Assembly (NCBI GenBank): GCA_001784555.1
Contig: MFRM01000005.1
Span: 99,802-163,801, forward strand
DNA: 64,000 bases
Source of the DNA: Candidatus Melainabacteria bacterium RIFCSPHIGHO2_02_FULL_34_12
Lineage (GTDB): Bacteria > Cyanobacteriota > Vampirovibrionia > 2-02-FULL-35-15
Direction: 5' to 3'
Both the position numbers and the translations under genes were made by a program. The first letter of the stretch is position 1. The number at the start of each line of letters is the position of its first letter. Positions 951 through 56,420 of this stretch are shown here, piece by piece. The notes beneath the pieces are model-generated. The model was not told where the DNA came from. It made no database searches and saw only the letters and a list, made by a program, of their open reading frames with translations.

Positions 951-1888
951 AGATATTAATAACAGGCGGAACAGGTTTTATAGGAAAAGCTCTAAGGAAA
1001 GAGTTGATTTTTAATAATCATGAGCTAACTATACTAAGTCGATATAAAAGAGAGGGCAGTGAGAAACTAAAATTTATATCATGGCACTGGAAACATCCAA
1101 AAGATTTGACAGAAATAATAGATGGAATGGATATTGTAATTAATCTTGCAGGTGAGTCTGTTGCAGGTAAAAAATGGACACCTGAACAAAAAGAAAAATT
1201 AAGAAGAAGCAGAATAGAAACTACAAAAGCAATTGTAGAAGCCATTAACAAATCAACAAAAAAACCAAAAAAATTAATCAGTGCATCAGCTGTCGGGATT
1301 TACGGCGACAGAAAAGATGAAAAAATTATCGAGGATTCTATTTTAGGATCTGATTTTTTAGCATCTATATGCAAAGACTGGGAACTTGAAGCAAGAAAAG
1401 TAGAGACTTGCCGTGGCACGTCTCTTGTAATCCTAAGATTTGGAATTGTTCTTGGAGCAAATGGCGGTGCACTAGAAAAAATATTGCCTCCATTTAAGAT
1501 GTTTATTGGCGGTCCATTAGGAGCAGGGAAACAGTATATGTCATGGATAGCACTTGATGATGTGGCTGGAATAATTAAATATGCTATTGATAATGATCAT
1601 ATTTCAGGAATATTTAATGCAACAGCACCAAATCCAGTAACAAATAAAGAGTTTTCAAATGTACTTGGAAAGATTTTAAACAGGCCATCGTTTATGCCAG
1701 TACCTGCATTTGCACTAAGGTTTTTAATGGGAGAAATGGCAGATATTGTACTCACAGGGCAAAAAGTTTTACCGGAAAGAGTACAAGCAGCAGGTTATGA
1801 ATTTAAATATGAAAAACTAAGAGATGCTCTTAAAAGTATCTTAAAAGAATCAGCAGCGGGAAGCCCGAGCTTGTCGAGGACTATATAA
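947..1888 (+). CDS. NAD-dependent epimerase/dehydratase family protein (TIGR01777/YfcH-like)
   Basis: 313 aa; Rossmann GGTGFIG at N-term; start overlaps xth stop (ATGA). Confidence 0.7.
1400..1427. repeat. 28-bp GTAG...CTAC palindromic element, degenerate copy, in frame in epimerase gene
   Basis: gtagagacttgccgtggcacgtctcttg; arms agagacNtgcc pair with 1 mismatch; encodes [10 protein letters not shown]. Confidence 0.5.
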
Positions 1889-1894
1889 AAAAGT

Positions 1895-1967
1895 TGCCGC
1901 GAGGCAGATTTGAACTGCCGACACAAGGATTTTCAGTCCTCTGCTCTACCAACTGAGCTATCGCGGC
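1895..1967 (-). tRNA. tRNA-Phe (anticodon GAA)
   Basis: reverse complement folds as cloverleaf: GCCGCGA acceptor, D-loop AGTTGGTAGAGC, anticodon loop CTGAAAA, T-loop GGCAGTTCAAATCTGCC; no encoded CCA. Confidence 0.85.
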
Positions 1968-2143
1968 AAACGACAGAATATTTATAGCACCTTTTTCATT
2001 ATAAAAAATTGTATCCCTAATTTCTTATTATTTTTCTTATTTGTTTTACTTGTCAAAGTCAAACCGGCAGATTTTCCTTATCTGTTTCTTTCGCAAATAA
2101 ACTTACTATTGCATGATTTTGATTCTCAAAAATCATTTATTCA

Positions 2144-3283
2144 TCAAACGGTCAATCTCTTCTTTTCTATCAATTTATTATTTATTAAGTTATGAAAAAC
2201 AAAATTTGGTGTCAACAGCTTCATGCAGCTTAAATGAGAACATTGAACCTTCACATCACATGGCTGGCATGGTAATAGCTGATTTAACCTAAGAGGAAAT
2301 ACTGATCGTCCGATGGGAAGCCATTTTTCAGGTCTTGTTGGTCCATATAAAACATAAGTAGGTATTCCTGAAGCTGCTGCCAAATGTGCATTTCCTGAAT
2401 CTGTAGAAATTGCCAGATCAAGTCCTTTATAAACCGAATAGCATTCTCTTAAATTAGTTAATCCGCACAAATCAAGAAATTTAAATTTTTTTCTATTCTC
2501 ACAAAGTTTAATAATCTCCTCATAGACTAATTTATCTGATTTAGCTCCTGTAAAAACAAACTGTGCTTCATATTCTTTAAATAAATAATCCATAAGCTTT
2601 GCAAAATACCTTTTAGGCCATTGTTTATATGGATGTGCACTACTAGCATGAATAAGAACTTTTGGTTTGTAACGATCGAGCCTGACTAAAAATCCATTAG
2701 CTTTGGATTTTTCAAAATCTGTCGGGAAAATTTCAGGGCTGTACCTGTAAGGTTCAATTCCAATTACCCTTAAGCAGTTTAAATAATTATCTAATTCATG
2801 AATATTTTTGTCGTATTTTACTGGATGTGTTAGTAGAAAAGAGCGAAGTTCAGTATTAAATCCTACTTTATACTTAATACCTGAAAGTGCTGCTAGAAGT
2901 GCACTTGAAAAGGAACGTTTTAAAACAAATGCGAGATCGTAATTTTCACTACGTAAACCCTTGGCACAATCTATAAATGAATTATATGTTGTATAAGTCT
3001 CGCCCTTTCGCCGGCTCGCCTCATTGCCGGTTCGTTCATATTTATGAAATTTAGAATTGTCATAGTAAAAAATATTATTTAAATCTGGATTTCCTTCAAG
3101 GATTTCCCCGCTATTTGGTGATACCAGAATATCTATCTGCACATCTGGGAAATGTTTTCTGACATTTTTTATAAAAGGGATGGTAAGAACTGTATCGCCG
3201 ATAAATCTGTAGCGAAGGATTAAAATTTTTTTTATGGTTTTTGTATCTAACATTTTTATACGTGAATTGCTTCTCCTAGACAA
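2144..3283 (-). CDS. glycosyltransferase family 9 (LPS heptosyltransferase-like)
   Basis: 379 aa; N-term ILILRYRFIGDTVLTIPFIKNVRKHFPD typical of GT9 heptosyltransferases. Confidence 0.7.
   Translation of the reverse strand: MSRRSNSRIKMLDTKTIKKILILRYRFIGDTVLTIPFIKNVRKHFPDVQIDILVSPNSGEILEGNPDLNNIFYYDNSKFHKYERTGNEASRRKGETYTTYNSFIDCAKGLRSENYDLAFVLKRSFSSALLAALSGIKYKVGFNTELRSFLLTHPVKYDKNIHELDNYLNCLRVIGIEPYRYSPEIFPTDFEKSKANGFLVRLDRYKPKVLIHASSAHPYKQWPKRYFAKLMDYLFKEYEAQFVFTGAKSDKLVYEEIIKLCENRKKFKFLDLCGLTNLRECYSVYKGLDLAISTDSGNAHLAAASGIPTYVLYGPTRPEKWLPIGRSVFPLRLNQLLPCQPCDVKVQCSHLSCMKLLTPNFVFHNLINNKLIEKKRLTV
3004..3034. repeat. possible degenerate copy of the xTxCGCCG octamer-tandem repeat family
   Basis: ttcgccggctcgcctcattgccggttcg, a GC-rich patch in an AT-rich gene, resembling ttcgccgatacgccgatacgccggttcgcc at 25305 and 58148. 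Confidence 0.3.
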
Positions 3284-55750: not shown

Positions 55751-55790
55751 TTTAATAAAACGAGGCTTGTCTGATTTACTCAGCAAGCCG
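55751..55790 (-). terminator. intrinsic terminator on minus strand upstream of GNAT gene
   Basis: minus strand GGCTTGCTGA-GTAAA-TCAGACAAGCC then TCGTTTTATT; preceded by a second 9-bp-stem hairpin at 55806-55844. Confidence 0.5.
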
Positions 55791-55947
55791 AGTGGTCTAT
55801 GGAAAGGCAGCTCTGAGGAGCAACGTCACCGCAAGAGCTGCCTGTGGTAATAACATAACTTATTAGAGATAATAAAAAAAACAATTATTTCATATTTCCA
55901 AGGCGGGGTGTAGAATGGAGATTGTTAATTAAAGAAGGATTATTTTA

Positions 55948-56391
55948 ATGAAAAGTATAGACTCCGAAAATCAAATTTCTTGTTTAGTGGATTATGGCAT
56001 TGTTTATTCAAAAAGAGATATGATTAGAATTTTAAGAGATCTGGATCGTGTTGAATATATAGATATGATTGATAATCTTTCTGTAGCAAAAGGCGAAGGT
56101 TTTGTAATTGAAGTTTATGCAAATTCATATGACTCAACCATAGTGTTTAATAACAGACTTCATATTAATGTTAATGGCTTTGACTTTCTGAAAATAAAAA
56201 CTACCCCTGAAAAAATTATTGAACTTATTTCTGGTCACAGAATAATAAGATTAAAACCACTTACAAATATTTTAAAATCAAACCAAGCAGCAATAGAAGA
56301 AGAAATTGATGAACAAAGAATTGCTCTTGCCAGCCAGTTTGGCTGTGATAATGAAGTAGAGATGGATTATACGGATCAGGGGAATTTATGA
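55948..56391 (+). CDS. hypothetical protein
   Basis: 147 aa; SD aagga upstream. Confidence 0.4.
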   Translation: MKSIDSENQISCLVDYGIVYSKRDMIRILRDLDRVEYIDMIDNLSVAKGEGFVIEVYANSYDSTIVFNNRLHINVNGFDFLKIKTTPEKIIELISGHRIIRLKPLTNILKSNQAAIEEEIDEQRIALASQFGCDNEVEMDYTDQGNL

Positions 56392-56392
56392 C

Positions 56393-56420
56393 GATAGAGA
56401 CAGGATCACCCTGTCTCTAC
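56393..56420. repeat. 28-bp GTAG...CTAC palindromic element, intergenic; supplies TAG stop of scpB
   Basis: gatagagacaggatcaccctgtctctac; starts 2 bp after the TGA of the upstream plus-strand gene. Confidence 0.8.

Follow-up and report, generated by a model that had tools for sequence, protein, structure and literature searches.

Repetitive extragenic palindromic (REP) elements are defined as extragenic repeats, and both their mobility and their link to RAYTs, the tyrosine transposases associated with REPs, are still largely inferential. The subject here is a family of short GC-rich palindromes, 5'-GTAG(A/G)G...C(C/T)CTAC-3', which lies mostly inside translated genes in 64 kb of the metagenome-assembled genome of Candidatus Melainabacteria bacterium RIFCSPHIGHO2_02_FULL_34_12, from Rifle groundwater (35% GC; contig MFRM01000005.1, positions 99,802 to 163,801; this whole stretch is termed the window). 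Small hairpin repeats are also known from cyanobacteria, where Elhai and colleagues in 2008 reportedly described small dispersed repeats (SDRs) of 21–27 nt that form hairpins, carry compensatory changes, were proposed to be mobile and lie mainly inside other repeats. SDRs have been reported only in Nostocaceae (PMC5861425).

The GTAG-tagged REP superfamily comprises 24 families, some of them in Cyanobacteria, Chloroflexi and Planctomycetes (Di Nocera et al. 2013, PMC3733652). Complementary stem variants, donation of TAG stop codons and association with RAYT genes have all been recorded for it, the cyanobacterial families are GTAG-12, -15 and -16, and intragenic members, which are most numerous in Opitutus terrae, encode peptides such as VGPALAAG (PMC3733652). 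In the cyanobacterial TnpA-REP subclasses 2.4, 2.7 and 2.8, the canonical REPs are long and bear GT[AG]G at the 5' end, and REPs have been found inserted inside tnpA-REP genes themselves (Quentin et al. 2018, PMC6006769). In Rickettsia, the palindromic element RPE-1 (RPE, Rickettsia palindromic element) is 100–150 bp long and the short RPE-4 and RPE-6 are CGTC-tagged, according to the summary of Ogata et al. 2000 in PMC3733652.

Judged from its sequence, the window family belongs most naturally to the GTAG REP superfamily, as a member from the Melainabacteria. It is reasonably probable that its copies are selfish REP-type palindromic repeats that are mobilised by a RAYT and kept as in-frame passengers in protein loops. 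A RAYT-type enzyme probably acts on them in trans.

The window holds about 21 copies of the palindrome, each 27–32 bp long, with a GC content of 40–73% in a genome of 32–38% GC. An exact-palindrome scan recovers eleven near-perfect members with arms of 10–15 bp. The expression GTAG[AG]G.{15,17}C[CT]CTAC has six exact matches where 0.02 are expected, and no dinucleotide shuffle reached six. Relaxing the palindrome criteria to 10 or more of 13 pairs with a GC of 0.45 or higher yields 22 matches, about 18 of them in the family, against 0–7 per shuffled sequence, and a scan for the family termini finds ten strict copies in the window and none in shuffles. Chance and base composition are ruled out by these shuffled-sequence controls. 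Every good copy carries GTAG or a close variant (GTAA, ATAG), which pairs with CTAC at the opposite end. Folded as RNA, the good copies have energies between -20 and -25 kcal/mol and z-scores between -4 and -8, and the copies at 36040 and 42210 differ by a compensatory pair. About ten members are degenerate, with 2–6 broken pairs; about half of the window copies are decaying.

An earlier note on this DNA, made from its letters alone, had described about 20 copies of a dispersed family of GTAG-headed hairpin repeats and had suggested comparing the expression above with shuffled sequence. The scans and shuffles bear out both the family and its enrichment, and each of the 21 positions listed in the note proves, to within a few bases, to hold the palindrome or a degenerate form of it that can still be recognised. 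The member it placed at 24636 is a palindrome with a real span of 24626–24653. Its statement that the two arms always stay complementary holds for the intact half of the family but not for the ten or so members with mismatched pairs.

An assembly artefact is ruled out by four independent assemblies of the same population, which are 99.995–100% identical over the region; the contigs compared are clonal, and no presence/absence polymorphism between strains was seen among them. A known RNA family was likewise rejected, as an Rfam gathering scan of the window yields just two tRNAs and an S-adenosylmethionine (SAM) riboswitch. Nor is the repeat a miniature inverted-repeat transposable element, because the whole element is a single hairpin, rather than terminal inverted repeats around a non-palindromic body; consistent target duplication at the element flanks was looked for in the window copies and none was found. 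The flanking bases are complementary, and so lengthen the palindrome, in 5 of the 11 good copies, a share that does not clearly exceed chance. Seventeen kilobases of added flank contain one further perfect copy, GTAGGGACGTTGCGCGCAACGTCCCTAC, at 4686–4711 of contig L221, about 5 kb past the right end of the window and within the gene for a 594-aa SMC_N/AAA protein (L labels denote compared contigs or loci, and P labels compared proteins). Copy density is therefore uneven along the contig, since this is the only copy in the extra flank.

Seventeen of the 21 window copies lie in frame within genes confirmed by Pfam, which was run on all 51 large non-nested open reading frames (ORFs) of the window. 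These genes encode an epimerase, a MurF-type ligase, Hom, a GFO/IDH/MocA protein, a multihaem cytochrome (six copies), an aconitase, a NagB-like protein, Ffh (two copies), a radical SAM protein, ProA and NadD. Two more copies overlap the ends of genes as TAG stop codons. The copies, with their genes, pairing, encoded peptides and net length relative to homologues, are as follows.

1400–1427, in the epimerase gene (947–1888, + strand): degenerate, 10/13 pairs, in frame; +2 codons relative to 4b4o
6387–6414, in the MurF-type ligase gene (6189–7577, + strand): perfect 28-bp GTAAGGGCTTGCCATGGCAAGCCCTTAC, peptide VRACHGKPLP; +7/8 codons relative to Melainabacteria orthologues
12620–12649, in hom (11503–12789, - strand): perfect 30-bp palindrome, peptide PVETLYTTSLL, -20.2 kcal/mol; length-neutral
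17399–17426, 12 bases upstream of the GFO/IDH/MocA start (17438): near-perfect, 12/13 pairs
18375–18402, in the GFO/IDH/MocA C-terminus (17438–18409, + strand): weak and degenerate, the least convincing member
23349–23375, in the multihaem cytochrome gene (23269–24756, - strand): 11/13 pairs, peptide ARVEVTSTL
23634–23660, same cytochrome gene: perfect 27-bp palindrome, peptide RRDGVTPSL; +3 to +7 codons relative to relatives
23783–23811, same cytochrome gene: 11/13 pairs, peptide VKTPHRGVST
23933–23960, same cytochrome gene: degenerate, 10/13 pairs, peptide GRDALTERF
24349–24377, same cytochrome gene: degenerate, 10/13 pairs, peptide GRDAPAGRL
24626–24653, same cytochrome gene: 12/13 pairs, peptide SRGVLEYAST
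26548–26575, in the aconitase gene (25140–27779, - strand): degenerate, peptide VGVCRGTPV; +1 codon
27798–27828, between the NagB-like and aconitase genes: perfect 31-bp palindrome, -21.3 kcal/mol; its CTA at 27824–27826 is the TAG stop of the NagB-like gene
28025–28052, in the NagB-like gene (27824–28630, - strand): 12/13 pairs, peptide CRGLLQQAP; +8 codons
32269–32296, in the G domain of ffh (31340–32794, - strand), site A: near-perfect, peptide IGAYGHTPL
32505–32532, in the N-G linker of ffh, site B: degenerate, peptide GTDTPMERL; +3 codons
36038–36069, in the radical SAM gene (35016–36596, - strand): 32 bp with 14-bp arms and a 4-base loop, peptide CREQLRLFP
41140–41167, in proA (40618–41907, + strand): peptide LVGAYHGTPL, spanned by NLVGAYHGTPLLNEGIVQFIASK; +8 to +10 codons
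42210–42237, in nadD (41904–42461, + strand): perfect 28-bp palindrome, peptide VGTSRDWSL, -22.3 kcal/mol; 0 to +1 codon
53935–53964, between a tRNA-Ala gene (53852–53924, + strand) and the end of a sigma-70 gene (53968–55023, - strand): perfect 30-bp palindrome, -25.1 kcal/mol, terminator-like on both strands
56393–56421, between convergent genes: its CTA at 56417–56419 is the TAG stop of scpB (56417–57160, - strand)

Inside genes only two reading frames are used, GTA-GRG ("V-E/G...") and nGT-AGR-G ("x-R-D/G..."). The third frame, which reads TAG, occurs exactly twice, once as the stop codon of the NagB-like gene and once as that of scpB, and none of the approximately 17 internal copies uses it (P about 0.001). 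Because no internal copy is in the TAG frame, the segments are translated rather than spliced out or bypassed. Coding density in the window is 91%, and 81–90% of the copies lie within or touch coding sequence. This match in proportions indicates that the family is not excluded from genes, unlike classical REPs. The in-frame placement within conserved genes that the earlier note had proposed is thus upheld by Pfam and translation for 17 copies, and the peptides it quoted, including GRDAPAGRL, were all reproduced. Of the three copies it described as intergenic and following gene ends, two actually overlap the gene end and supply its TAG stop.

The protein context is clearest for Ffh, for which an AlphaFold model (mean predicted local distance difference test score, pLDDT, 71.7) places both element copies in coil. 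The linker copy spans residues 86–102, with pLDDT below 50 at residues 90–92, and site A is the loop preceding the helix at 173–186. The multihaem cytochrome has six copies in 495 residues, its orthologues range widely in length, from 397 to 505 aa, and the L130 orthologue bears inserts of both a long element and a short palindrome. This cytochrome seems unusually tolerant of such insertions.

Gain and loss of copies are directly visible among relatives. Syntenic 21-kb loci were compared from eight related environmental Melainabacteria, 18–33% diverged in protein, together with 75 Gastranaerophilales loci; the nearest genomes in the collections searched are about 73% identical in protein, and a metagenome search with Hom gave one near relative, L233. 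The 64-kb window has 10 strict family members; the near relatives have 5 across 143 kb, and the Gastranaerophilales loci have none across 1.27 Mb. The ProA element is present in the window only and absent from all eight relatives, and it also adds 8 codons relative to the Thermotoga structure 1o20. The Ffh linker element occurs in three of nine lineages (+3 codons in the window and L008, +6 in L005) and is absent from the six other lineages and the outgroups. One element is confined to the radical SAM C-terminus of L005 (+4 codons), and another to the Ffh C-terminus of P0011. Copies in the unlinked Ffh and NagB-like genes of L008 differ at 1 of 27 aligned bases, and a similar near-identical pair lies at positions 3185 and 9901 of L005. 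The lineage-specific gains and the near-identical unlinked copies together show that copies are generated and dispersed.

Net length change differs from site to site. The earlier note had raised the question of whether the segments are lineage-specific insertions, and this is what is found in MurF, ProA, the NagB-like protein and the Ffh linker; elsewhere insertion is not always the right word, as in Hom, NadD, epimerase and aconitase, where the change is 0, 0 to +1, +2 and +1 codons, respectively. In Hom, the perfect 30-bp palindrome takes the place of exactly 11 codons that are unrelated and AT-rich in the 73%-identical L233, and the segment has equal length in 43%-identical homologues. The NadD figure holds relative to L132, 1kam and 8aih, and at Ffh site A the net change relative to L132 is 0. 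A phmmer alignment with E. coli MurF that implied no insertion proved to be a misalignment, as closer orthologues give +7/8 codons. As a separate observation, P0002, a 482-aa Ffh on a 1.8-kb contig, matches the L007 lineage over its first approximately 270 residues and the window lineage over the remainder, and looks like a chimeric assembly or a recombinant.

Certain loops are occupied repeatedly by palindromes with distinct cores. At residue 177 of the radical SAM protein, good palindromes are present in the window (GTAGGGAACAGTTGCGACTGTTCCCTAC), L131 (GTAGGGAATGGTCTCGACCATCCCCTAC) and L132 (GTAGGGGCTTGTTGCAACAAGCCCCTAC). Ffh site A is filled in the window, L130, L008 and L005, and the aconitase site, degenerate in the window, carries a good palindrome in the L008 orthologue. 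Pairwise comparisons of orthologous sites show 2–5 compensatory double changes against 1–5 single changes (4 and 1, respectively, for radical SAM between the window and L132; 4 and 3 for Ffh site A between the window and L008). Sister genomes bear different element classes, or none, at residue 103 of NadD and residue 194 of the NagB-like protein, and the NagB-like loop is occupied by other elements in relatives. Judging from these sequences, the recurrence would fit a small number of permissive loops being hit again and again, or older copies being converted or refreshed; taken alone, it is no proof that the hairpin is under selection.

The same 28-mers are also common well outside the Melainabacteria, in contigs of unrelated phages and bacteria. 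Viral contigs were scanned with the pattern GTAGRGRCG-N8-12-CGYCYCTAC. Among the matches listed, 62 of 144 are perfect palindromes through the unconstrained interior, the elements are mostly exactly 28 bp although the contigs range from 35 to 73% GC, and the recurrent cores ATTCATGAAT, ACCGGCCGGT, CGATTAATCG and TTGCATGCAA include several that also occur in Melainabacteria. Cores such as CGCGATTAATCG and CGTTGCATGCAACG are shared by Melainabacteria relatives and unrelated viral contigs. The ORF lying over an element has a median of 153 codons, against 294 at random positions (again among the matches listed), and in these contigs the 28-mers behave as ordinary REPs, mostly outside long ORFs.

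In the phage contig L017, 28-bp GTAGAGACGCAAT...CTAC palindromes at 559–586 and 2416–2443 stand directly 3' of the phage S49 protease and major capsid genes, and the same pair, 1857 bp apart, recurs in the related phage contigs L018, L026, L069 and L086. This placement suggests that they are terminators or mRNA-end hairpins.

A physical tie to a RAYT is provided by L209, an Oscillospiraceae-like contig classed as viral that was found by searching viral contigs with a RAYT alignment. It encodes a 163-aa RayT at 1211–1702 on the + strand (PF01797 at E 1e-6), with 80–82%-identical relatives named RayT by JGI. Within this gene, two inverted in-frame GTAGGGGCGATCATTGATCGCCC REPs at 1325–1347 and 1496–1518 read VGAIIDRP and GRSMIAPT. 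They are of the GTAGGGGCGAT type, related to the window family, and have the classical one-sided GTAG tag. With two copies inside the L209 RayT gene, the GTAGGGGCG-type hairpin qualifies elsewhere as a genuine REP associated with a RAYT. REPs in a RayT's own coding sequence agree with a trait reported for TnpA-REP subclass 2.4, and in Roseiflexus the RAYT N-terminus GRPQGVAPT corresponds to ...GTCGCCCCTAC. The REP/RAYT architecture that the earlier note had offered as the comparison therefore proves to be the right one, given the catalogued GTAG REPs (PMC3733652) and the related REP inside the L209 RayT.

The proposed mechanism can be described as follows. As single-stranded DNA or RNA, the element would fold into a 12–14 bp hairpin with GTAG at its 5' end on either strand. 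New copies would arise from single-stranded DNA through a trans-acting HUH Y1 transposase (RAYT/TnpA-REP) that recognises "GTAG plus hairpin", and copies would be gained, lost and replaced over evolutionary time. They would land mostly in genes because the compact genome is 91% coding. Selection would then retain copies that preserve the frame, in one of the two stop-free frames, in surface loops, while copies in the TAG frame would persist only at gene ends, becoming the stop codon. The encoded peptides would be unconserved passengers, and the retained thing would be the DNA or RNA palindrome.

Several observations weigh against mobilisation by a RAYT followed by passive retention. No Y1/HUH (RAYT, PF01797) gene was found in the window and the 17 kb of added flank (about 81 kb of genome in total) or in 226 kb from relatives by Pfam on all ORFs, tblastn with 10 RAYT/TIRYT seeds (Additional file 5, PMC3733652) and an HUH-Y motif scan; the search for an IS200/IS605-like HuH gene that the earlier note had proposed thus came up empty in this sequence. 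There are no identical pairs among the window copies, and hence no trace of a very recent burst from a single master. The GTAG of classical GTAG REPs is unpaired at one end, whereas here it is paired with CTAC. An element of 9–10 codons alters the length of its gene by anything from 0 to +10 codons net, a spread at odds with simple insertion; "insertion" is for this reason only partly right, and from the alignments the target sequence may have been lost at integration, trimmed later, or overwritten. Finally, orthologous loops contain palindromes with different cores in lineages about 27–30% diverged in protein, and so re-insertion or conversion, or selection on the hairpin, is needed. Loop recurrence and partly length-neutral replacement are the features that bear most of the remaining interest.

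One way to accommodate these points is to dispense with a dedicated transposase. Copies would then overwrite DNA by repair or recombination (filler DNA captured at a break, a microhomology-mediated template switch onto a second copy, or gene conversion acting on older copies), and intrastrand template switching would keep the arms identical. The length-neutral or partly compensated sites (Hom, NadD, epimerase, aconitase and Ffh site A), the turnover of cores at fixed sites, the near-identity of the L008 Ffh and NagB-like copies, native targets that begin GTAG-like (GTAGAA in aconitase, (A/G)TAAG in MurF) and the failure to find a RAYT in the window, flank or relatives' loci all suit such a process. 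It is nevertheless rather unlikely. Unrelated genomes ranging from 35 to 73% GC strictly preserve both the length of 28 bp and the GTAG(A/G)G(A/G)CG termini, a sign that a protein recognises the element; RayT has related REPs in physical association with it (L209; PMC3733652, PMC6006769); and a clean new site such as ProA lacks the prior homology that conversion requires. A slightly less probable idea, and a speculative one, is that the palindromes overwrite loop-coding DNA and that the same loops are rewritten repeatedly by hairpin-guided editing or conversion of single-stranded DNA, whether RAYT-like or repair-based. If true, this would amount to a class of mobile element that works by overwriting sequence and keeps recoding the surface loops of essential proteins.

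Alternatively, the hairpins could be functional and held in place by selection on nucleic-acid structure, serving to stabilise or process mRNA, to pause translation at domain boundaries or to terminate transcription, or acting as DNA sites of the kind that gyrase or integration host factor uses in REPs and bacterial interspersed mosaic elements, with mobility secondary. Palindromy at orthologous sites is indeed kept by compensatory double changes in radical SAM and Ffh site A, the folds are very stable on an AT-rich background, the 53935–53964 copy, which separates a tRNA from a convergent gene, looks like a terminator on either strand, and the same 28-mers lie directly 3' of phage capsid and protease genes. 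However, about half of the window copies are decaying, close relatives have no element, or no palindrome, at the same sites, and copy positions have no consistent relation to gene features. Sister genomes have entirely different element types in the same NadD and NagB-like loops, and the Gastranaerophilales do without any strict family member in 1.27 Mb, which leaves this explanation improbable. The mitochondria of some yeasts contain "byp" elements, GC-rich inserts in genes. Segments cut from the mRNA or bypassed by the ribosome in that manner would be superficially consistent with GC-rich hairpin inserts in AT-rich genes. This is very hard to credit for the window family, as all internal copies leave the frame downstream of them intact and none uses the TAG frame, features that removed elements would not need, and relatives translate the same loops at similar lengths. 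RAYT-mobilised REP-type repeats retained as loop passengers therefore remain the favoured reading.

The window and its relatives also contain a second GC-rich repeat of about 100–135 bp, with terminal inverted repeats GTCATTGCGAGG...GCAATGAC and internal hairpins. Its positions are as follows.

40494–40600 and 46833–46966, with a related fragment at 46786–46815: window copies of the second repeat, both intergenic
L130 2341–2742 and 17476–17559; L005 3215 and 13475; L007 6957 and 13192: copies of the second repeat in relatives

In the relatives this repeat lies in frame in NadD, NagB-like and cytochrome genes and encodes peptides like VIARSETTKQS...PRRLFEPPRND. At the NadD site, L007 and L133 have GTCATTGCAGAGCAATGAC, which resembles the two termini of the second repeat collapsed together and is perhaps a footprint or minimal form of it. 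Among other features of the window, the SAM (S-box) riboswitch at 43751–43881 (- strand) stands upstream of the S-adenosylmethionine synthetase gene (42436–43695, - strand). Every Pfam match in the window is to an ordinary housekeeping family; roughly a dozen ORFs match nothing, three large ones among them, 46974–49712 (- strand, 912 aa), 32953–34533 (+ strand, 526 aa) and 52358–53671 (- strand, 437 aa).

A non-photosynthetic sister lineage of the Cyanobacteria in which nearly every copy of a REP-type repeat is translated in housekeeping proteins constitutes a natural experiment. It opens the questions of how much foreign sequence the loops of essential proteins can absorb, how hairpins choose or overwrite their targets, and whether the palindromes are maintained by selection, conversion or re-insertion. 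In practical terms, added or replaced segments of 9–10 residues rich in Gly, Arg, Thr and Val will cause confusion when Melainabacteria proteins are aligned, assigned to orthologues or modelled in structure.

Among known systems, the cyanobacterial SDRs resemble the window family, when compared by description, in being very small hairpin repeats with compensatory changes. The Rickettsia RPEs share with it the in-frame placement of palindromes in many housekeeping genes, in surface regions and in a compact AT-rich genome. The window elements differ from the RPEs, as these are summarised in PMC3733652, in their 27–32 bp length and GTAG tag, in having no sequence relationship to them and in being length-neutral at several sites, where RPEs are net insertions. 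The likeness to RPEs drawn in the earlier note is accordingly behavioural only: in-frame copies in conserved genes are common to both, and size and tag are not. The REPtron/RAYT subclasses 2.4, 2.7 and 2.8 are similar in their long REPs, their cyanobacterial lineage and their tolerance of in-frame REPs in coding sequence, and differ in that a RAYT partner gene was not found in the approximately 81 kb of genome read.

The closest match is with the GTAG REPs, which are likewise short (20–40 bp) GC-rich stem-loops with a GTAG terminus and many dispersed copies, with subfamilies marked by complementary stem changes, a supply of TAG stops and some in-frame "VG..." copies. The family is thus of a kind already catalogued, GTAG-tagged REPs with intragenic members (PMC3733652), a point that the earlier note had left undecided; its Melainabacteria host lies outside the survey of Di Nocera et al. 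(PMC3733652). Compared with the GTAG families by description, the window copies are symmetric 28-mers and singletons rather than dimers, and about 85–90% of them are intragenic, where the GTAG families have a small intragenic minority and a predominantly extragenic, downstream-of-gene placement that is not seen here. Mostly intragenic, translated copies are unusual for a REP-type repeat, though not unprecedented. What distinguishes the Melainabacteria family is its full GTAG...CTAC symmetry, its near-total intragenic location, the recurrence in the same loops of palindromes whose cores differ by compensatory changes, and a replacement of coding sequence that is partly length-neutral.

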